Assembly: GCA_964492455.1 (NCBI GenBank)
Contig: CAZBKR010000003.1
Span: 1 to 32,483, forward strand
Direction: 5' to 3'
DNA from: an uncultured Oscillospiraceae bacterium
GTDB taxonomy: Bacteria; Bacillota; Clostridia; Saccharofermentanales; UBA5734
Length of the DNA stretch: 32,483 nucleotides
Below, one piece after another: positions 1,066 through 28,878 of the stretch; the stretch's first letter is position 1; each line of letters starts with the position of its first letter. The position numbers and the translations under genes were made by a program. Under the pieces are notes generated by a model. The model made no database searches. It was given only the letters and a program-made list of their open reading frames with translations, and was not told the DNA's origin.

Positions 1066-2172
1066 ATGGAAAAGACATTGCTTCGGAACGTGTGGATCCC
1101 GGACGCAAAGATGGAGTGGCATGCCGGCGAAGTTCTGTTTGTCGGGGCCAGGGTCGCTGAGGTGTCCGTGGTTCCGTTAGAGGCAGACGCGAATGCAGTC
1201 GACGGGAAAGGCGGATTCCTGCTGCCGGGGTTCATCCATACCCACGCGCACCTGATGGAAAACAACGACGGATTCAATACGGAAAATCTACACCGCTGGC
1301 TGCGGTCCGGGATCACTCACATCCGGGACCAGGGGATCTTATCCCGGCATACTGCTGAGGACGCGGTCGCGTGGCGGGATAGCCTGCCATCCGCGGAGGG
1401 ATACCCGTCCCTGTCGGTCTGCGGCCCGTTTCTTTCCGCCCCGGGAGGGTATGGCGGGTTCTCTCCGATCGGGGTCTCCTCTCCGGCAGAGGCCCGGGAA
1501 GCGGTTCGGCGTCTGGTGGACACCGGTGTGGACCATCTGAAACTGGCTTACGATGAGGGATACGACGAATCCACCCGCAATCTCCCGATGCTGGGACCGG
1601 ATTGTATGGATGCGATCTGCGATGAGGCACACCGATTGGGATACACAGTCTCAGCGCATGTCACGCGGGTAGCCCGGCTGGAAACTCTGGTCGACTGCGG
1701 CATCGATGAATCCGCGCACACCTGCATAGATCCAATGCCGGATTCCCTGATCGAACGGATGGTGCGAAATGGCGTTGTTATGACTCCGACCTTGTCGATG
1801 TTTGCGATGTTCGCGGACCGGACGCATCTGCCACTTCTGGATGCCGCGCTCGACAACACCCTTCGCTTTGTTCGAGCTGGCGGCGTGATCGGTTTGGGCA
1901 ACGACTACCTGGGAGAGGAGCCTCCCTGGGCGCCGGTCGGCATGCCCTTTCTGGAGATGGAATGTCTCTTGCAGGCCGGGTTGACGATGCCGGAAGTGAT
2001 TTGGGCGGCTACCCGCGGGGGCGCTTCTCTTCTGGGTCGACAGGATCTTGGACGCATCGAGCCGGGATGCCGCGCGGATCTGTTGCTGCTGACCGAAGAT
2101 CCGACTGTTGGCCCGGAGGCATTGGCCTCGGTGCGCCAGGTGGTCAAAGACGGAGTGATTTACTATACGTAA
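1066..2172 (+). CDS. Amidohydrolase-superfamily metal-dependent hydrolase
   Basis: An HxH metal-binding motif (GFIHTHAHL) lies near the N-terminus. The length and the C-terminal pattern (GNDY..., ADLLLL..DP) are typical of amidohydrolase family proteins. GGAAGGA lies 10 nt upstream of the ATG at 1066. The alternative ATG at 1057 and the track start at 976 are less likely. Confidence 0.8.
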   Translation: MEKTLLRNVWIPDAKMEWHAGEVLFVGARVAEVSVVPLEADANAVDGKGGFLLPGFIHTHAHLMENNDGFNTENLHRWLRSGITHIRDQGILSRHTAEDAVAWRDSLPSAEGYPSLSVCGPFLSAPGGYGGFSPIGVSSPAEAREAVRRLVDTGVDHLKLAYDEGYDESTRNLPMLGPDCMDAICDEAHRLGYTVSAHVTRVARLETLVDCGIDESAHTCIDPMPDSLIERMVRNGVVMTPTLSMFAMFADRTHLPLLDAALDNTLRFVRAGGVIGLGNDYLGEEPPWAPVGMPFLEMECLLQAGLTMPEVIWAATRGGASLLGRQDLGRIEPGCRADLLLLTEDPTVGPEALASVRQVVKDGVIYYT

Positions 2173-2203
2173 GCTATAACGACGATAATCGGGAGCACGA
2201 GGT

Positions 2204-2548
2204 GTGGCTATGCAAGACGAGCAAACGAAAGCACGGTTCATGGAATTGCGGGAAATGATGAAAGGGTATACCGCTTCTTCCGTCCTGACATCGTCTCGCC
2301 CGTATCCGATCGTTAATAAAAGCCACGGACCGGATCGCCGAAGCGACCTTGGGGCAGGTGTTTATGGACAGCACCGCAGTCGACTTTGTCTGAACGGTGG
2401 TCCCCTACCGCAGCGAATGGAGGTATGTCACCAAAGCCCAGAAGTGCGCGCTGCTCGATGCAGGGCACGTGTGCCGGAATCTGTATTTGGCTTGCGAGGC
2501 GGTCGGGCGGCCGGTTTGACCCGTTCGGAGATCTACGCAGTTCCATAA
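2204..2548 (+). pseudogene. Decayed nitroreductase-fold gene (frameshifted, internal stop, internally deleted)
   Basis: Homology is spread over different frames. The frame of 2343..2519 reads ATLGQVFMDSTAVDFV(TGA at 2391)TVVPYRSEWRYVTKAQKCALLDAGHVCRNLYLACEAVGRPV(stop). This matches the conserved C-terminal core of nitroreductase/SagB-type proteins (..YR..llDaGHv.qNlyLaaeAlGl..). An N-terminal-like piece RFFRPDIVSPVSDR sits in another frame near 2270. The 114-aa track ORF itself translates to low-complexity Arg-rich sequence. Confidence 0.45.
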
Positions 2549-2701
2549 GCAATCGAATAACATAGAGGGCTCGCGAAACCTTGTTTCGATCGATACAATG
2601 AAGGCAAGAGCCGCACCGGCCAGTCCAGGGGCGGCGGTGTTGATTGGCCCGCGGCAGCAAGCCGCTCTCAAGCCGCCGGATGTGCGGCGAGGAGGATTCC
2701 T

Positions 2702-3490
2702 ATGCGCAAAGAAATCACGCTTCCCTCCCTTCGCCGGTTCAATCTGATCATGGGCATTCTGCATTTCATTCAAGGGGCCCTGATGCTGGGGTTCAGCATC
2801 GCCATCGACAAAATATCCGCATTTCGCCCGCCGCTGCGCACTTATTTCCTCACTTTCGATACTACACAGATGCGTCTCGTGACCGAACCCCGCGAAGCGG
2901 GCAGTCTGCCGTTCGGCATTCTGGTGGCCTGCTTCCTGCTGTTGTCGGCTTTGGCTCATTTCATCATCGTTCTGCCTGCAGGCAACCGGGTTTACAACCG
3001 CTCGATCGAGCAGGGAATCAATCCCTTCCGCTGGTATGAGTATGCGCTGAGTTCTTCCGTTATGATCGTGCTGATCGCATCGGTGTTCGGGGTCTATGCG
3101 GTAGATACGCTGATCGCCATCTTTCTGCTCAACGCCGGCATGAACCTGTTCGGGCTTCTCATGGAACAGATGAACGCGGGCAAAGAGAAGGGAAAGGTGC
3201 GGTGGGTATCCTTTGTGTTCGGGTGTGTGGCCGGGATCGGCCCCTGGATCGTGATTCTGCTGAACGCCTTTGGCAATTCCGATCCGGCGGAAATCCCCTG
3301 GTTTGTGATCGCGATCGCTGCTTCCTACTTTGTGTTTTTCAATCTGTTCCCGATCAATATGGTGCTGCAGTACAAACGGGTTGGCCGCTGGGCGGACTAC
3401 AAATACGGGGAGCGCGGTTACATCGTCTTGAGCCTGGTTGCCAAGACGGTACTTGCGTGGCTCGTGTTTGCGGGTGTCATGCAGCCATGA
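2702..3490 (+). CDS. Heliorhodopsin (7-TM retinal-binding protein, inverted topology)
   Basis: The 262-aa polytopic protein has blocks NPFRWYEYALSSSVMIVLIA, FGCVAGIGPWIVIL and YGERGYIVLSLVAKTVLAW. These correspond to the TM3, TM5/6 and TM7 signatures of heliorhodopsin 48C12 as I recall it. Schiff-base Lys is K248 (AAG 3443-3445), counterion Glu is E113, and the conserved His residues are H21 and H86. A strong RBS (GAGGAGGA) lies 6-7 nt upstream of the ATG. Confidence 0.9.
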   Translation: MRKEITLPSLRRFNLIMGILHFIQGALMLGFSIAIDKISAFRPPLRTYFLTFDTTQMRLVTEPREAGSLPFGILVACFLLLSALAHFIIVLPAGNRVYNRSIEQGINPFRWYEYALSSSVMIVLIASVFGVYAVDTLIAIFLLNAGMNLFGLLMEQMNAGKEKGKVRWVSFVFGCVAGIGPWIVILLNAFGNSDPAEIPWFVIAIAASYFVFFNLFPINMVLQYKRVGRWADYKYGERGYIVLSLVAKTVLAWLVFAGVMQP

Positions 3491-3546
3491 CGGCAGATAC
3501 CCGGAAAGACGCGTACCGGGTTCGGTCCGGGAAGCGCGTGGACTAG

Positions 3547-4008
3547 ATGCCGTCCGGGCACAAGATCCTTGCGATCCTGTTTTATGTCGGCCAATGGACC
3601 TGGGGGATTCCGGTTAATCTCGTCGGGGGATTGGGATGGCTGTATGGACATGCGCGTGGATTTCATCAGGAACGTTTTCTCCTCGCGCAGGTCACCTATC
3701 TTCCGACACGGCTGTCGGGCGGACTGTCGATCGGGATGTTTCTGTTTGTACCGGATCGCTACCGGATGCGGGAGACAAACGGGTGGGACCGTTCTCACAT
3801 GGTGCATGAGTACGGACATACATTCCAGGCTTTGATTCTGGGCATTCTGTACTGGCCGTTGATCGGGCTGCCTTCCCTGTTGTGGTATGCGCTTCCCCGT
3901 AACGCGCGGTTTCGCGCCAGGCGGGGGCTGTCATACTACTGGCTGTACACGGAGGCCTGGGCCAACCGTCTGGGAGCACGCGTGACCGGTTGGAATGCCC
4001 CGGTGTAG
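3547..4008 (+). CDS. Small polytopic membrane protein with HExxH (HEYGH) zincin motif; putative membrane metallopeptidase of an uncharacterised family
   Basis: The protein is 153 aa with about 3-4 hydrophobic segments (ILAILFYVGQWTWGIPVNLVGGLGWL, GGLSIGMFLFV, ALILGILYWPLIGLPSLLWYAL). HEYGH lies at residues 87-91 (nt 3805-3819). A possible third ligand, Glu in YTEAWAN (E136), lies downstream. The gene is on the same strand as the heliorhodopsin stop, 56 bp downstream, with no T-tailed terminator between them. Confidence 0.7.
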   Translation: MPSGHKILAILFYVGQWTWGIPVNLVGGLGWLYGHARGFHQERFLLAQVTYLPTRLSGGLSIGMFLFVPDRYRMRETNGWDRSHMVHEYGHTFQALILGILYWPLIGLPSLLWYALPRNARFRARRGLSYYWLYTEAWANRLGARVTGWNAPV

Positions 4009-4043
4009 GCGCTATGCGTCGATCATCGGGACGCGCTGCCTGT

Positions 4044-4382
4044 CTAGTCCTTGATGTACACCGATACACGTAAAACGCCTGCGGTAAAGGTGACATCCGC
4101 CTGATCCACCATCGCACCCAGCAGATAGTGATTGTCTCTGCCGGAGCCCATGTCGAGCAACTCGAGATAGTACGACTCCATCTCGGGTTGCACTCCGTCT
4201 GTGAGAGCCTGCCGGAAGGTGTCAAAATCCGATGGCACGTTCTGCGCGGATCCGCTGAGTTCGATGAGGTGGCCCCCGCCGTCCGGTGTCACCCGGAGAT
4301 GAACATCCAGGATCTCATGGTCCAGATAATAGCCGAGGAGTTCCGCCAGGATACGTTTGACTTTTTGTGTGGCTCCATTCAT
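4044..4382 (-). CDS. Hypothetical soluble protein (112 aa), translationally coupled to the upstream DUF1576-like gene
   Basis: Its ATG overlaps the stop of the upstream gene (ATGA at 4382..4379). Codon usage is consistent with its neighbours. I recognise no family. Confidence 0.6.
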   Translation of the reverse strand: MNGATQKVKRILAELLGYYLDHEILDVHLRVTPDGGGHLIELSGSAQNVPSDFDTFRQALTDGVQPEMESYYLELLDMGSGRDNHYLLGAMVDQADVTFTAGVLRVSVYIKD

Positions 4383-5656
4383 GGTTCCGGTTTTCCCTTC
4401 TTCCGCTGGGCGATGATCTCTTTCAGAGCGTCGAGGATCGGTACCATCGCAGCCGCGATGAATCCGCCCGAAAACCCGTTGTTGTAGAGGTTCATACCGG
4501 CATGGAGATCCCCGATGTTCATGACCATCGCTGTATGCAGCATGCCGGCCAGGATGCCGACGAGAGGACCGTAGTGGCCGCTGATCGGCGCGAGGGTGGT
4601 CCCGAACAATGCTGCCAGCAGCATAACAGTTGAATCAACTTCATAATGGTTGACCAGACCCATCAGGAAGACACCGAGCAGAATCGGCAGCACATTGCGC
4701 GGGTGCTTGCCGAACGCACCAAAGCCTACCACGGTAAAGATGCCCCCGATCACGGGTCCGGACAGATGCCCTCCCACCAGAAGAACGTACCCGGTCGATA
4801 AAAAGCCGAGCACTGCCATATTGACCAATGTCAAACCAAATCCCGATATGGTCACAAAATCCGCGGCCAGACGGCCGGACTGCCGCAACAGACTTCCGTA
4901 TCCGGCAAGCCGCCAACCCGAAATCCGGAGCCCTGCCACCAGCATCCCAAGGAAAAGAATGCCCAGCAGCAGTATGTAGGGGAGGTTGTCTGCGGAGGAG
5001 ACTTGATTGACCAGCCCGATCTCGATGCCGAAATTGCGTAGGACGGCGATGAAAAACATTCCGACAATCCCGGCGGTGAATCCGATATTGTAAAGATTAA
5101 AGCCCTGATGGAAGCGAAGCATGTGCATCGACAGCGGCGTCAGTACAAATCCCGCAAAGAGGCCCGCAGCGAAGCCCAGCAGTAACCCGATCGGTTGCAC
5201 AAGACCAAGATGAAAGGCCACTTCGCTGAACAGCGGCCCCAGCGCAGTTCCAAACAAGGCCTGCAGAAGATAGCGATCGAACGATGTGCGTGAGACCAGG
5301 GCATACAGATACACCCCGGCCATGATCGGGATGGAATTGAGCAGATTCTTCCCGAACAACGAGAATCCCGCCATCGTGAACACCGCAGCCACCAGTGGAC
5401 CCGTGATCCGGACCCGGCTCAGGCGGATGATCAGTATGGCGAGATAGGTCATGAGTCCGGCGTTCAGCAACGCCGCGCCCGGACTGGCCAGTGCAAAGTA
5501 ATCTGTGATGAGATTGGCCGGAGAAGTCAGGATGGTAAGGCTCCCGCGGAAGATTTCATCCGCGGGACTCAATAGAAAAGCGGCAGCGGTCAGCAACGTG
5601 GCAAACGCCAACAGAAACGGGGTCCTGTTTCTGTCTGTTGCTTCCGCCGCCGCCAT
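4379..5656 (-). CDS. Polytopic membrane protein, DUF1576-like (two-repeat architecture)
   Basis: The protein is 425 aa and hydrophobic throughout. It has an internal duplication about 200 aa apart (FNLYNIGFTAGIVGMFFIAVL versus MNLYNNGFSGGFIAAAMVPIL), as I recall for DUF1576 proteins of Firmicutes. The start lies 5 nt after the stop of the upstream gene. Confidence 0.7.
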   Translation of the reverse strand: MAAAEATDRNRTPFLLAFATLLTAAAFLLSPADEIFRGSLTILTSPANLITDYFALASPGAALLNAGLMTYLAILIIRLSRVRITGPLVAAVFTMAGFSLFGKNLLNSIPIMAGVYLYALVSRTSFDRYLLQALFGTALGPLFSEVAFHLGLVQPIGLLLGFAAGLFAGFVLTPLSMHMLRFHQGFNLYNIGFTAGIVGMFFIAVLRNFGIEIGLVNQVSSADNLPYILLLGILFLGMLVAGLRISGWRLAGYGSLLRQSGRLAADFVTISGFGLTLVNMAVLGFLSTGYVLLVGGHLSGPVIGGIFTVVGFGAFGKHPRNVLPILLGVFLMGLVNHYEVDSTVMLLAALFGTTLAPISGHYGPLVGILAGMLHTAMVMNIGDLHAGMNLYNNGFSGGFIAAAMVPILDALKEIIAQRKKGKPEP

Positions 5657-6073: not shown

Positions 6074-7066
6074 TCACTTCTGCTCCGGTCCGGCGGCGTC
6101 CGCTTTGCCGGTGCCCGCGATCGAACTGCGCATCTGCGTGTCTGAGATGATGTTCTGCATGTTGTAGTAGTCCATCACTCCGAGTTTTCCTTCACGGAGA
6201 GCTTGTGACATCGCCTTGGGCACTTCAGCTTCCGCTTCGACGACCTTAGCGCGCATCTCCACGACTTCCGCTTTCATCTCCTGTTCGCGGGCAACTGCCA
6301 TCGCGCGGCGCTCTTCGGCTTTGGCCTGGGCGATACGCTTGTCTGCTTCCGCCTGGTCGGTCTGCAGCTGGGCGCCGATGTTGCGGCCGACGTCGACGTC
6401 CGCGATGTCGATCGAGAGAATCTCGAACGCGGTACCGGCATCGAGCCCTTTGTCCAGGACGGTCTTGGAGATGCGGTCCGGGTTCTCAAGCACGTCTTTG
6501 TGGGTCATGGCCGAACCAATCGTGGTGACAATACCCTCACCGACACGTGCGATGATGGTTTGTTCACCGGCGCCGCCGACCAGCCGGTCAATGTTCGCGC
6601 GCACGGTTACGCGGGCTTTGGCTTTGAGCTCGATCCCGTCTTTGGCGATGGCCGCGACCAGCGGCGTCTCGATGACTTTCGGGTTGACGCTCATCTGTAC
6701 CGCTTCGAGTACGTCGCGCCCTGCCAGGTCAATGGCTGCGGCGCGCTCAAACACCAGCGGAATCTCGGCACGCTGTGCTGCGATCAGGGCGTTGACCACC
6801 TTATCGACGTTGCCGCCGGCGAGGAAATGGGCTTCCAGTTGGTTGATATTGACATTGAGTCCGGCCTTGGTCGCCTTGATCTGCGGATTCACGACCCGGG
6901 CGGGGATGACACGCCGCAGGCGCATACCGATGAGGTTGAAAATGCCGACTTTGACACCGGCCGCCGCGGCCGAAATCCACAACCGGACCGGAACAAAGCT
7001 GAAGAGCAGCGAGAGTACAAACACGATCGCCGCAGCAAGCAACGCATACCAGAAGAAATCTTCCAT
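6074..7066 (-). CDS. floA: Flotillin-like protein FloA (UPF0365/YqfA family, SPFH domain)
   Basis: An N-terminal TM segment is followed by [27 protein letters not shown]..., [19 protein letters not shown] and [24 protein letters not shown], which matches the FloA pattern. AAAGGAG lies 7 nt upstream of the ATG at 7066, so the track start at 7084 adds 6 unlikely residues. Confidence 0.9.
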
Positions 7067-7103
7067 ACCTTGGACTCCTTTCATACCGCCTGTCAGGCGA
7101 TGG

Positions 7104-7625
7104 TCACTCGATCGGCCGGACCACGATCCGGCGGCCTTCCGTCCGGATCACGAGAATCCGGGTTCCTTGCGCGATAAACGCACCTTCTGTCACGACATCC
7201 ATACGCTGTCCGTCGAAATCGCCGGTACCGGCCGGCCGGAGCACTGTGATTGCCACGCCCTCTTTCCCGATCAGGGACGAAGCGTCCGAAGTCGCTGAAA
7301 AACCGTCTTCCTTTCGTGAGGATGACCAGAGAATAAGCTTCTTCGACAGCTTGCCTTTCTTCGCAGACCGCAGAATGATCCACAGAACGATCGCCACAAG
7401 CACAAGAAGAAGGACGATCATCACGGCGGCTTCGAACAGCGATTCGGCGGTGAGCACAATCCCGACCACCAGCAGCAGCAATCCCGTTCCCCCTGCGACC
7501 CCGAACCCAGCCGTAAAGATCTCGGTTATGAGCAATAGAATCCCGACGATGAACAGGATGGCCGGAAGCGTTTCAATGTTGTCGACAAAACTGAACAGTC
7601 CTGTCGCAAGCAGCAATGTCCCCAA
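7104..7625 (-). CDS. NfeD-family membrane protein (short form: TM region plus C-terminal OB-fold, no ClpP-like protease domain)
   Basis: The C-terminus [54 protein letters not shown] fits the NfeD OB-fold pattern. The position upstream of floA is classical. AGGAGG (7639..7634) favours the TTG at 7625 (8-nt spacer) over the track TTG at 7631 (2-nt spacer). Confidence 0.8.
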
Positions 7626-7792
7626 ATACAATCCCTCCTGCCTGTGCCATGTTTCCGGTTGGATGGTTCTTTCATTATAGTCCTACCGGGAGATCAAAAG
7701 GTAACAGGGGCGTCATATCGGATTCGTGTTGTAGGAATTGGTTCATGTGTGGTATAAGCACAGGAAGTATGGTTTTTATAAGGAGTGGTGAT

Positions 7793-23640: not shown

Positions 23641-23708
23641 CGACGGTGTTTGTATCCGATTTGTAATGAAAAACCGCTTTGTCCCCCGGGTTTCGCAACC
23701 GAAGTGCG

Positions 23709-23756
23709 ATACAATATCTGGTATTGGAACCAGCATCCGAGTACCATATATCGTTC
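23709..23756. promoter_or_regulatory. Two NrdR-box-like AT-centred palindromes upstream of nrdD
   Basis: Box 1 is ATACAATATCTGGTAT (23709-23724; 12 of 16 positions self-complementary). Box 2 is GTACCATATATCGTTC (23741-23756; core ACCATATATCGT, 10 of 12 self-complementary). Their centres are 32 bp apart, which matches the phased tandem arrangement known for NrdR operators. Confidence 0.5.
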
Positions 23757-23772
23757 GTCAGGGGGATCTGTC

Positions 23773-25872
23773 ATGATTACGCAAATCCGAAAACGGGATG
23801 GACATATCGCAGCATTTCAGCCGGATAAAATCACACTGGCCATTTTCAAGGCCGCCGTCGCGGTCGGCGGCGACAACTGGGAGAGAGCCGAATCGCTGAT
23901 GAGGCAGGTCTCCGAGATCGCGGACCGGCGCTATCTGGACGGTCTCGCGGAGGTCGAAGGGATCCAGGACATCGTCGAAAAAGTCCTGATCGAAAACGGA
24001 CATGCCAAAACCGCCAAAGCCTATATTCTGTATCGGGAGAAAAGGCGCACGGCCCGCGAGGCGAGTGCGCTGGTCGGTGCGACGGTCGACATGTTCTCCC
24101 AATATCTGGGGGACCGCGACTGGCAGATCCAGGAAAACGCCAATACACAGCGCTCGATCAACGGTATGAACAACTATATCCGCGAAGCGTTTACCAAACA
24201 GTACTGGCTGCATGAAATCTATCCGGCTCCCATCCGCGAGGCCCACCAGTCCGGAGACCTGCACCTGCATGATCTCGGATTTTTCGGGCCCTACTGTGCG
24301 GGCTGGGATCTGCGTCAGCTTTTGATGGACGGCTTTGGCGGTGTTCCGGGAAAAGTGGAATCCAGTCCGTCCCGACACCTGCGTTCCTTCCTGGGACAGA
24401 TCACCAACTCCACCTTTACCACCCAGGGCGAGACTGCGGGGGCACAGGCCTGGTCGTCGTTCGACACCTACTGCGCTCCTTTCATTCGCTACGACCGCCT
24501 CACCTATACCCAGGTCAAACAAGCTCTGCAGGAATTCATCTTCAACATCAATGTGCCGACCCGCGTCGGATTCCAATGCCCGTTCTCCAACCTGACCTTC
24601 GATATCGTGCCGCCCCGCACTCTGAGGGAGGAGCCGGTGATTCTCGCCGGCCAGTACACAGGAGACAAATACGGCGATTTCCAGGCGGAAATGGATCTGT
24701 TTAACCAGGCGTTCTGCGATGTCATGCTGGAAGGCGATGCCAAGGGAAGGGTGTTCACATTCCCGATTCCGACGATCAACATCACCAGAGAGTTCGACTG
24801 GGACTCCCCGGTGGTCAACCGGTTTATGGAGATCACCTGCAAATACGGCATTCCGTATTTTTCCAACTACGTCAATTCGGATCTGTCCCCTGAAGACGCG
24901 GTCTCGATGTGCTGCCGGCTGCGGCTCGACACCTCCGAATTGCGCAAACGCGGAGGCGGGCTGTTTGGATCCAACCCGCTGACCGGATCCATCGGGGTGG
25001 TCACGATCAACCTGCCCCGGATCGGATATCTGGCTGAGACGGAAATAGATTTCTTTGCCCGGCTCAAACACCAGGTGGAACTCGCGCGGGATTCGCTGGA
25101 GATCAAGCGCAAGACGATCGAGGAGCAGACCGCGCGAGGGCTGTATCCGTATTCCGCCCACTATCTGCGCGCTATCAAGGAGCGCACCGGGCAGTACTGG
25201 TACAACCACTTCAACACCGTCGGTCTGGTCGGGATGAACGAAGCCTGCATCAATTTCCTGGGGGAGGACAGCGATCTGACAACACCGGAGGGGCAGGCAT
25301 TTGCTGCCCGCACACTGGACTGCATGCGGTCACTGCTCCAGGAAATCCAGGAGCAGACCGGACATTTTTATAACCTCGAAGCCACACCGGCCGAAGGAAC
25401 AAGCTATTCTCTCGCGCGAAAAGACAGAGATCTGTATCCGGACATCCGCACCGCCGGTGAGAACGTGCCCTATTATACAAATTCCTCCCAGCTTCCGGTC
25501 GGCTTCACGGACGACATTTTTGAGACACTGGATCTCCAGGACGAGTTGCAGTCCCGTTATACCGGAGGTACCGTGCTGCACCTCTACCTCGGCGAGCGGA
25601 TCCCGGACATCGAAGTGGCGAAGAAACTGATCCGCAAAACATTTGAAAACTATAAATTGCCTTATATCTCACTGACTCCCACGTTTTCGATCTGCCCGAC
25701 GCACGGCTATCTCGTTGGAGAGCACTTCACCTGTCCCGAGTGCGGAGCGGATGCCGAGGTATGGAGCCGGGTCGTCGGCTATCTGCGGCCGGTGCAGAAC
25801 TTCCACAAGGGAAAGAAAGAAGAATACCGTCAGCGGACAAAATATGTAATGCGCAAATCCGAACTCGCATGA
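23773..25872 (+). CDS. nrdD: Anaerobic ribonucleoside-triphosphate reductase (class III), with N-terminal ATP-cone
   Basis: An ATP-cone (MITQIRKRDGHIAAFQPDKI) lies at the N-terminus. The C-terminus has a Zn-ribbon (CPTHG...CPECG) and the glycyl-radical motif SRVVGYLRPV (Gly codon 25777-25779). GGGGGA lies upstream of the ATG at 23773. Confidence 0.95.
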   Translation: MITQIRKRDGHIAAFQPDKITLAIFKAAVAVGGDNWERAESLMRQVSEIADRRYLDGLAEVEGIQDIVEKVLIENGHAKTAKAYILYREKRRTAREASALVGATVDMFSQYLGDRDWQIQENANTQRSINGMNNYIREAFTKQYWLHEIYPAPIREAHQSGDLHLHDLGFFGPYCAGWDLRQLLMDGFGGVPGKVESSPSRHLRSFLGQITNSTFTTQGETAGAQAWSSFDTYCAPFIRYDRLTYTQVKQALQEFIFNINVPTRVGFQCPFSNLTFDIVPPRTLREEPVILAGQYTGDKYGDFQAEMDLFNQAFCDVMLEGDAKGRVFTFPIPTINITREFDWDSPVVNRFMEITCKYGIPYFSNYVNSDLSPEDAVSMCCRLRLDTSELRKRGGGLFGSNPLTGSIGVVTINLPRIGYLAETEIDFFARLKHQVELARDSLEIKRKTIEEQTARGLYPYSAHYLRAIKERTGQYWYNHFNTVGLVGMNEACINFLGEDSDLTTPEGQAFAARTLDCMRSLLQEIQEQTGHFYNLEATPAEGTSYSLARKDRDLYPDIRTAGENVPYYTNSSQLPVGFTDDIFETLDLQDELQSRYTGGTVLHLYLGERIPDIEVAKKLIRKTFENYKLPYISLTPTFSICPTHGYLVGEHFTCPECGADAEVWSRVVGYLRPVQNFHKGKKEEYRQRTKYVMRKSELA

Positions 25873-26585
25873 AAATCGCCGGGCTGGTTCGGCTTTCCAC
25901 CGTGGACTTCCCCGGACGTCTGGCGGCTGTCGTGTTCACGGCGGGCTGCGATCTGGATTGTTTTTATTGTCACAACCGTTTGCTGCTTGGAGCCGGGGCA
26001 CCGGAAATGGCACTCGCGGACGTCGTTGCTTTTCTGGACAAACGCCGCGGTGTGCTGGATGGTGTGGTCGTGTCGGGAGGAGAGCCGACGATCCAGCCGG
26101 GGCTCCCGGCGTTTCTTCGTTTACTGCGTGATATGGGGTACGCAGTCAAACTGGACACCAACGGCGGTCACCCGTCGGTACTGGAACAGCTGATCCAGGC
26201 CAGACCTTCGCCGCTGGTCGACTATATCGCGATGGACATCAAAGCTCCCTGGTCGCGATATCCCGATGTCTGCGGAGGGGAGCCGGAAGTGGCGGAGAAT
26301 GTTCAGGAATCGGTTTCGATCCTGTCGCGGCTTGCTGCCGGTGCAGGTATCGCTTGGGAACTGCGCACGACAGTCGTCCCCCAATTGTCGGAGGACGACC
26401 TCGTGGAGATGGGCTCTTTGCTCCCTCCGGTTCCGATCTATGCGCTGCAGCAGTATCGACGTCCGGAGGTCTTTCGTCCGGAGGACCGTTTTCGCGTTGC
26501 TGCCGCCGCTTTGACACCGGAGGGGCTGGAACGTGCTGCTGTCCGGATGCGCGCATTCCAGCCCAATGTGGTTGTGAGGGCCTGA
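25869..26585 (+). CDS. nrdG: Anaerobic ribonucleotide reductase activating protein (radical SAM)
   Basis: The N-terminus MKIAGLVRLSTVDFPGRLAAVVFTAGCDLDCFYCHN carries the CxxxCxxC cluster motif, and GVVVSGGEPT follows. The ATG overlaps the nrdD stop (ATGA at 25869-25872). Confidence 0.9.
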   Translation: MKIAGLVRLSTVDFPGRLAAVVFTAGCDLDCFYCHNRLLLGAGAPEMALADVVAFLDKRRGVLDGVVVSGGEPTIQPGLPAFLRLLRDMGYAVKLDTNGGHPSVLEQLIQARPSPLVDYIAMDIKAPWSRYPDVCGGEPEVAENVQESVSILSRLAAGAGIAWELRTTVVPQLSEDDLVEMGSLLPPVPIYALQQYRRPEVFRPEDRFRVAAAALTPEGLERAAVRMRAFQPNVVVRA

Positions 26586-28179: not shown

Positions 28180-28878
28180 TTACCGGATTGTCTCACTGAC
28201 ATCACCGGTTACTTCAAACTTAGCGGTAGAGGTCTGACGGATCCGTTTGACAGGACGGATCGCGAGTCGTTCCAGCACCGGCACACGACCCTTGAGCCCG
28301 TAATGCGCGATCAACGTGAACACGATCGATCCGAGCGTGTTGAGCAGGATGTCGGTCATGGTGTCCAGCAATCCGCCGCCGTCCAGATTGCGCTGCATAT
28401 TCATACCCAGCACAGAATCCAGTGTATATTCCACGATTTCCCAGATCGTGCCGATGGTCATGATAAAGCAGAAAATCAGCAGTAAGGAGACGCCGTGAGA
28501 TAGGCCCCGGTTCTCCGGCGCACGGTTACGCGCCGCTTGCACAATGGAGTAGGCTGCAATCCCGATGGCGGGAGCCGATAAAAAATGAAGCATCGCGTCC
28601 CACCACCAGAACCGGTAATACCATTCGTTTACGCTGCCTAAAAACATCCCGATGAAGATAAAAAGCATCATCACGGTTTTGGTGACCGGGGGAACATGGA
28701 GTCTTTTACCGATTTCAAACAGGAACGGAGCGATCAATGCGATCGCTGTGGTCATCCCCTGGTTGAAGTATACCCACCGGTCGCTCCGGTCCGACAGCAG
28801 AACTGCGATACAGATGCCGGAAATGATCAGAAACAGCAATAGAAAAAGAACGCGCACGGCTCGCTCGTTTCGGTCCAA
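28180..28878 (-). CDS. Polytopic integral membrane protein (possibly VanZ-like or YjdF-like; family uncertain)
   Basis: The protein is 232 aa with about 6 hydrophobic segments. Motifs WWWDAMLHFLSAP and LLDTMTDILLNTLGSIVF are reminiscent of VanZ-type membrane proteins. The gene is convergent with zwf (19-bp gap). Confidence 0.65.
   Translation of the reverse strand: MDRNERAVRVLFLLLFLIISGICIAVLLSDRSDRWVYFNQGMTTAIALIAPFLFEIGKRLHVPPVTKTVMMLFIFIGMFLGSVNEWYYRFWWWDAMLHFLSAPAIGIAAYSIVQAARNRAPENRGLSHGVSLLLIFCFIMTIGTIWEIVEYTLDSVLGMNMQRNLDGGGLLDTMTDILLNTLGSIVFTLIAHYGLKGRVPVLERLAIRPVKRIRQTSTAKFEVTGDVSETIR

Follow-up and report, generated by a model that had tools for sequence, protein, structure and literature searches.

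An intact heliorhodopsin gene from an uncultured Bacillota lineage and its predicted role in light sensing

Analysis of a 32,483-nt stretch of DNA (hereafter the window) revealed an open reading frame (ORF) at positions 2702-3490 that almost certainly encodes a heliorhodopsin. We put at about 0.75 the probability that this is a genuine, intact member of the clade of heliorhodopsins from Firmicutes anaerobes, with the sensing mechanism proposed below. The protein is most likely a non-transporting green-light sensor that would use exogenous retinal and regulate another protein.

Sequence, predicted fold and retinal pocket

The gene and its translation signal are as follows:
2702-3490, plus strand: heliorhodopsin coding sequence, 262 aa plus stop codon, assigned from Pfam, NCBIfam and PDB matches and an AlphaFold2 (AF2) model
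2691-2695, plus strand: ribosome-binding site GGAGG, read from the sequence, 6 nt 5′ of the heliorhodopsin ATG

The initial annotation of this DNA had described an intact heliorhodopsin gene, and this description was borne out by family profile searches, PDB matches, residue mapping and the predicted fold. A search against the family profile, which had been proposed as a check, gave a match far beyond chance to Pfam PF18761 (Heliorhodopsin; E = 1.7e-96; 322.7 bits, the cut-off being 26.7), spanning positions 1-242 of the 242-position model. No other family was found in the Pfam search of the 262-aa protein at E ≤ 1. The NCBIfam equivalog NF038020 (heliorhodopsin HeR) was matched over positions 1-244 of 244 with 302 bits (cut-off 100), and heliorhodopsins were the sole matches in a sequence search of the PDB, led by TaHeR (1.7e-53) and 48C12 (2.7e-48). 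The four peptide blocks quoted in the annotation are all present in the ORF: MRKEITLPSLRR at residue 1, FRWYEYALSSSVMIVLIA at 109, FGCVAGIGPWIVIL at 173 and GERGYIVLSLVAKTVLAW at 236. The blocks of 48C12 that align with the quoted peptides read frwveyslsssvmivlia, fgciagivpwigll and gerayivlslvaksalaw.

The AF2 model of the protein, built on 21 clade sequences (mean pLDDT 85.3, pTM 0.78), comprises seven long helices and a β-hairpin in the AB loop (strands 44-53 and 58-68), a predicted arrangement like that of the solved heliorhodopsins; K248 lies within the predicted helix 233-259. In Foldseek comparisons the model reached TM-scores of 0.87-0.93 with TaHeR and about 0.85 with 48C12, while type-1 rhodopsin structures scored 0.46-0.62 at 10-16% identity. 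Neither the type-1 family model nor the Asp counterions of type-1 rhodopsins were recognized in the protein, the counterion here being Glu, and the position of bacteriorhodopsin Asp212 is occupied by Ser244. Lysine and arginine residues number 13 in the segments predicted to lie inside, compared with five outside, all five of which are located in the AB hairpin. This distribution of charge is compatible with the inverted topology predicted from the family, with a cytoplasmic N-terminus.

Four residues were expected to form the core of the retinal-binding site:
3443-3445, plus strand: AAG, codon of K248, the retinal Schiff-base lysine in helix G, aligned with K241 of 48C12
3038-3040, plus strand: GAG, codon of E113, the Schiff-base counterion in helix C, aligned with E107 of 48C12 and E108 of TaHeR
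2762-2764, plus strand: CAT, codon of H21, a histidine of the Schiff-base cavity, aligned with H23 of 48C12
2957-2959, plus strand: CAT, codon of H86, a histidine of the Schiff-base cavity, aligned with H80 of 48C12

These residues and the codon of K248 had been placed correctly in the initial annotation, and the residues align with K241, E107, H23 and H80 of 48C12; all four are invariant among 21 aligned clade members. For a wider comparison, a list of 41 residues defined in the 48C12 structure paper (PMC7049168) was mapped by script through the printed 48C12 alignment. The 48C12 numbering was taken as valid because the identities of all 41 residues agreed with the list in the paper. Thirty-three of the 41 are identical in the protein encoded by the window, including K241, E107, H23, H80, S237, S76, S111, R104, E230, E149, N101 and P172 of 48C12. 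The counterion-stabilizing serines S76, S111 and S237 of 48C12 are represented by S82, S117 and S244, and the cavity residues N14, H21, H86, Y98, N107, R110, Y114 and E237 are equivalent to N16, H23, H80, Y92, N101, R104, Y108 and E230 of 48C12. The helix-E proline of 48C12 is conserved as well. Within the retinal pocket two positions have changed, I142 to N148 and Q213 to M220, a pair of substitutions described for ‘subfamily 3’ (PMC7049168). By alignment, the full set of residues holding the protonated retinal Schiff base is present, and every feature of sequence and predicted fold by which the family can be recognized in silico was found in this protein.

Some viral heliorhodopsins are reported to transport protons, in work cited by PMC11109279 and PMC12873467, and a light-driven or light-gated proton transporter resembling viral V2HeR3 was considered as an alternative to a sensor. 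Such an activity is very unlikely here, as the protein is closest to the non-transporting TaHeR and 48C12, its clade is bacterial and chromosomal rather than viral, and the position of 48C12 L202, which is Glu in many viral members of subfamily 2 (PMC7049168), is occupied by Tyr209.

Conservation of the gene, its neighbours and candidate partners

At least nine metagenome contigs encode a protein identical to this one. Four contigs of the same species that were retrieved differ from the window by 0-2 nt (1-2 nt in two of them), and the protein is unchanged. On a same-species JGI contig (3300045917; L002) the genes for the aldo/keto reductase, FloA and DUF1576 proteins are each split, with the heliorhodopsin gene intact; these splits have the look of frameshift errors from assembly or sequencing, not of a biological difference.

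The nearest other species (referred to as the sister species) carries a heliorhodopsin that is 81% identical, within a syntenic locus. Comparison of the two genes by the Nei-Gojobori method yielded a dN/dS of 0.088 with a dS of 1.39, and on this measure the heliorhodopsin gene is under strong purifying selection. Recent horizontal transfer was considered and rejected: the GC content of the gene (55-56%) matches that of its flanks (56-60%), the locus is syntenic with that of the sister species, and there is no sign of a genomic island. Judged by its sequence, the gene is a long-resident, constrained component of the chromosome.

The following features were distinguished around it:
2210-2507, plus strand: pseudogene remnant of a SagB-type nitroreductase, delimited by tblastn and by DNA alignment with the sister species
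3547-4008, plus strand: ORF for a 153-aa membrane protein with an HEYGH motif, 57 nt 3′ of the heliorhodopsin gene
4044-4382, minus strand: ORF for a 112-aa protein of no family, overlapping the stop codon of the DUF1576 gene
4379-5656, minus strand: gene for a DUF1576 protein, a 425-aa membrane protein

On the 5′ side, the plus strand encodes an amidohydrolase as well as an aldo/keto reductase that contains a 4Fe-4S domain. In the sister species an intact 261-aa SagB-type nitroreductase, which matches TIGR03605, is encoded between the amidohydrolase and heliorhodopsin genes (L005:7086-7871). A tblastn search of the window recovered residues 1-22 of this protein in one frame and, in a second frame interrupted by a stop, residues 146-218, with no trace of the remainder; since the fragments lie in two frames and contain a stop, we regard the SagB-type gene as a pseudogene in the window.

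The 3′ side has diverged as well. In the sister species a string of genes, each with a start that overlaps the preceding stop, occupies L005:8786-11536. The first, which begins at the heliorhodopsin stop codon, encodes a 289-aa protein of no known family; the second encodes a 327-aa protein that combines an HExxH membrane domain at its N-terminus with an FMN_bind domain at its C-terminus; and the product of the third, 302 aa long, is a radical SAM enzyme of the Rv2578c/PA0069 type, which scored below the NCBIfam cut-offs and matched the Pfam spore-photoproduct-lyase family at no better than E 0.27. This string is a putative heliorhodopsin operon, and it is missing from the window. Compared with the sister species, genes flanking heliorhodopsin on both sides have disappeared or decayed. 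The persistence of constraint on the heliorhodopsin gene while both flanks decay is a mildly useful comparative point and argues for its own promoter or its own set of partners, rather than for a fixed operon.

The initial annotation had suggested that a GC-rich leader of about 100 nt could be regulatory, a proposal that found no support: the folding energy of the leader equals that of shuffled sequences (z = -0.01), the region is unconserved in a DNA alignment with the sister species, and Rfam returned nothing at gathering score in the whole window and nothing at E ≤ 1 over positions 2450-2760. A regulatory RNA leader was rejected on these three grounds. The hexamer TACAAT that had been noted as a weak promoter element is indeed present at 2594-2599, but a promoter role for it is unsupported, since a scan of positions 2100-4500 detected no promoter of the sigma-70 type (nor any intrinsic terminator consensus). 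The best -35 hexamer at a spacing of 17 nt from TACAAT agrees, by eye, at three of six positions.

The 153-aa ORF is possibly co-transcribed with the heliorhodopsin gene, no terminator consensus being found between the two. Its product shares 58% identity with the N-terminal stretch of 146 aa in the 327-aa protein of the sister species, and it was considered as a truncated remnant of such a protein. This was rejected because the ORF is complete for its family, whose members are 140-170 aa long: it has 157 relatives, and nearly all of the best 120 of these are 130-200 aa long. No Pfam or NCBIfam model covers the family. Three relatives (L168, L170 and L171, at 5001-5470) lie directly 5′ of genes for Peptidase_C11 proteins of 860-890 aa, an arrangement that looks like a possible pairing of a small HExxH protein with a clostripain-like protease.

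This ORF raises the question of a light-regulated pair composed of heliorhodopsin and a membrane metalloprotease-like HExxH protein. The two genes share a strand and are separated by a 57-nt gap with no terminator consensus, the ORF is a real, full-length member of its family, and the homologous HExxH domain (58% identity) is retained in the gene string that starts at the heliorhodopsin stop codon of the sister species. We nevertheless consider such a pair improbable. In a tblastn search of 80 heliorhodopsin loci, a homologue of the 153-aa ORF was found in none of the 79 from other species; in the sister species the 289-aa gene intervenes between heliorhodopsin and the HExxH protein; the three relatives next to Peptidase_C11 genes have no heliorhodopsin nearby; and the assignment as a protease is backed by no family model. 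The 153-aa protein was therefore rejected as a general partner, although it is kept as a weak candidate for a local one.

Beyond this ORF the minus strand encodes, in order, the 112-aa protein, the DUF1576 protein, a 125-aa protein, FloA and NfeD. The 112-aa ORF and the DUF1576 gene look like a conserved two-gene unit, because this small ORF comes after the DUF1576 gene in at least 12 of 80 metagenome DUF1576 loci. As the DUF1576 gene is found a few genes from heliorhodopsin in both the window (two genes away) and the sister species, and is divergently adjacent to it in two other loci (L030 and L085), it was weighed as a conserved partner of heliorhodopsin. The heliorhodopsins of L030 and L085 are 99.6% identical and represent one lineage, so only two independent cases exist, and none of the 80 metagenome DUF1576 loci (908 kb) contains a heliorhodopsin. 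A general association is refuted by this count; the candidate was rejected, and we assign it a negligible probability.

The flotillin-like FloA and NfeD genes form a pair on the minus strand (6074-7084 and 7104-7631, respectively), 2.6 kb from heliorhodopsin. A flotillin-associated type-1 rhodopsin has been described (PMC10308929); no link of FloA/NfeD to heliorhodopsin was found. The remaining genes of the window represent ordinary chromosomal content.

A partner was also sought across the clade. Eighty heliorhodopsin loci from species-representative genomes (60-81% identity) were collected and their neighbouring genes clustered together with those of the window. No gene is common across the 81 loci; the most frequent neighbours, ABC ATPases, occur in 12 of the 81, and such counts are approximate because the simple ORF caller erred in GC-rich loci (for instance, it missed the L005 heliorhodopsin). 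Neighbours specific to particular lineages were an OYE flavin oxidoreductase, LigT, an alpha/beta hydrolase, DUF3159, DUF1475, SDR and DUF4153 proteins, and the ABC ATPases. None of these families adjoins the heliorhodopsin of the window, and the neighbours in the sister species differ from those in the window. The ten recurrent neighbour families reported in PMC11109279 are likewise not adjacent, the flanks being the SagB-type pseudogene and the 153-aa ORF. One of the ten is DUF2238 (PMC11109279); a 232-aa ORF at 28180-28878 on the minus strand, which is 24.7 kb away and on the other strand, has a sub-threshold match to it (24.9 bits, compared with a cut-off of 26.4). Genes for a glutamine synthetase, a photolyase or an ABC exporter neither share an operon with the heliorhodopsin gene nor occur elsewhere in the 32 kb. 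No conserved partner of the heliorhodopsin was found at these loci.

Host, retinal supply and proposed mechanism

The genomic context had been called ‘Bacillales-like’ in the initial annotation, a label that could not be upheld. NCBI lists a protein fragment (NLN45958.1) from a MAG of the same species as ‘heliorhodopsin HeR, partial [Clostridiaceae bacterium]’. The name given to the sister species is ‘Clostridia bacterium isolate Go_SlDig_bin_186’, and the glucose-6-phosphate dehydrogenase (G6PD) encoded in the window provides no support for Bacillales. This enzyme shares only 45-49% identity with that of any cultured organism, and its best cultured matches are a mixture of Clostridia (Fonticella, Moorella, Acididesulfobacillus) and Bacilli (Paenibacillus, Cohnella); MAG matches of 55-57% carry the labels Clostridiales, Eubacteriales or Bacillota. 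Given these labels and a distant G6PD whose matches are divided between Clostridia and Bacilli, the host belongs to an uncultured, deep lineage of Bacillota.

An anaerobic ribonucleotide reductase, NrdD (740-aa ORF), and its radical SAM activase NrdG are encoded by overlapping genes at 23650-26585 on the plus strand, a sign that the host is anaerobic or facultatively so. From the names of related MAGs, rather than from metadata, we presume the habitat to be a sludge digester. Together, the MAG names and NrdD/NrdG point to a dark, anoxic habitat. A light sensor would be hard to rationalize in such a place, and oxygen-dependent cleavage of carotenoids would be unavailable.

The initial annotation had reported a lack of retinal genes, and we likewise found no match to a carotenoid or retinal family among the sizeable ORFs of the 32 kb. 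The full retinal pathway was found in one of 381 heliorhodopsin-only genomes (PMC8612252 and its preprint), and the absence of retinal genes is normal for heliorhodopsin hosts. The same authors reported that heliorhodopsins capture exogenous retinal efficiently. Since the pathway is usually missing in these hosts, the cell may import retinal from outside; the source of retinal is most likely external.

In the proposed mechanism, all-trans retinal would be bound at K248 with E113 as the counterion, and the N-terminus would face inwards. The protein would absorb green light and undergo a slow photocycle, with no movement of ions. The light signal would then be passed to another protein via positively charged cytoplasmic loops (K161, K163, K165, R167, K225, R226 and R229). 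Regulation of partners through charged intracellular loops has been described for other heliorhodopsins (PMC9529153, PMC9769723 and PMC11109279). Taken as a whole, this mechanism has, in our estimate, a slightly better than even chance of being correct.

In a competing reading, the protein acts in an anaerobic and probably dark-living host without need of light or retinal, perhaps as a structural or ligand-binding component of the membrane, and would be retained for that role. The 32 kb contain no retinal genes and do contain an anaerobic ribonucleotide reductase, the MAG names of relatives suggest digesters and sludge, and the members of clusters C8-C10 are largely anaerobes of sediments and activated sludge (PMC8612252 and its preprint); the gene is nonetheless constrained (dN/dS 0.09). 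Against this role, the lysine of the Schiff base, its counterion and almost all of the retinal pocket are invariant across the clade, as would be expected if retinal binding were under selection; capture of exogenous retinal by heliorhodopsins is reported to be efficient; and the habitat is deduced from names and not from metadata. We therefore consider a light-independent role unlikely. A more speculative reading, quite improbable in our estimate, is that the heliorhodopsin of this clade senses a cue other than sunlight, or that it scavenges retinal or serves a redox role, perhaps in connection with the variable downstream genes (for the HExxH membrane protein in the window; for the 289-aa, HExxH+FMN_bind and radical SAM proteins in the sister species). 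Such roles could be considered because the hosts would be strictly anaerobic, probably dark-living Bacillota of digesters and sludge, unable to cleave carotenoids with oxygen, yet the retinal lysine and pocket are constrained (dN/dS 0.09). The reading we prefer is still that of a green-light sensor supplied with exogenous retinal.

Relatives and comparison with known heliorhodopsins

At 60-81% identity, the nearest relatives belong to Clostridia, Syntrophomonadaceae, Alkalibacterium, Jeotgalibaca and Carnobacterium. Many MORN-HeR fusions also match, with 64-68% identity within their heliorhodopsin domain; unlike these, the protein described here carries neither MORN nor any other added part. 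The MORN-HeR proteins are included in clusters C8/C9 of Bulzu et al. 2021, whose sources are for the most part anaerobes, strict or facultative, living in sediments and activated sludge (PMC8612252). By its relatives, rather than by a tree, the protein would be assigned to C8/C9.

Relatives of 60-69% identity were also found on MAG contigs labelled Sphaerochaeta (a 229-kb contig), Spirochaetales, Kosmotogaceae, Thermotogaceae and Muribaculaceae (L016, L015, L019, L021, L029, L033, L069, L070, L074, L077 and L084). These are labels of diderm or toga-bearing taxa, with labels and binning taken as given. Heliorhodopsins have been reported to be nearly absent from diderms.

Genes of this kind are already known, and the same-species copy bears the name heliorhodopsin HeR in NCBI (NLN45958.1). 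The anaerobic Firmicutes clades of heliorhodopsins and their usual lack of a retinal pathway have also been published (PMC8612252 and its preprint). With this gene, a clade that already numbers hundreds of heliorhodopsins in anaerobic Bacillota gains a further intact member, and the significance of the gene extends little beyond correct annotation. The question of the function and partners of the family is brought no closer, because the neighbours are unconserved even in the sister species and two candidates failed reverse tests.

Among characterized proteins, the best solved match is TaHeR of a Thermoplasmatales archaeon (PDB 6is6, 7u55 and 7clj), at about 40% identity. It has the same set of Lys, Glu and two His residues, as well as Asn and Met at the positions of 48C12 I142 and Q213; it differs in its archaeal origin and in the length of the AB loop (six gapped columns). 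The founding member of the family, 48C12 (PDB 6su3, 6su4 and 6uh3), is about 41% identical and its whole Schiff-base cavity is the same, although it is of actinobacterial origin, unlike the protein of the window. Differences from 48C12 affect the dimer interface (D127 to A133, Y179 to N188) and a surface cluster (S242 to T249, Q247 to L254).

Heliorhodopsins with known partners include AbHeR with glutamine synthetase, TfHeR with a CPDII photolyase and OcHeR with the OmrDE ABC exporter (PMC9529153, PMC9769723 and PMC11109279). The protein encoded by the window belongs to the same family and, like them, has predicted cytoplasmic loops rich in Lys and Arg, the kind of surface shown to bind partners in those proteins.
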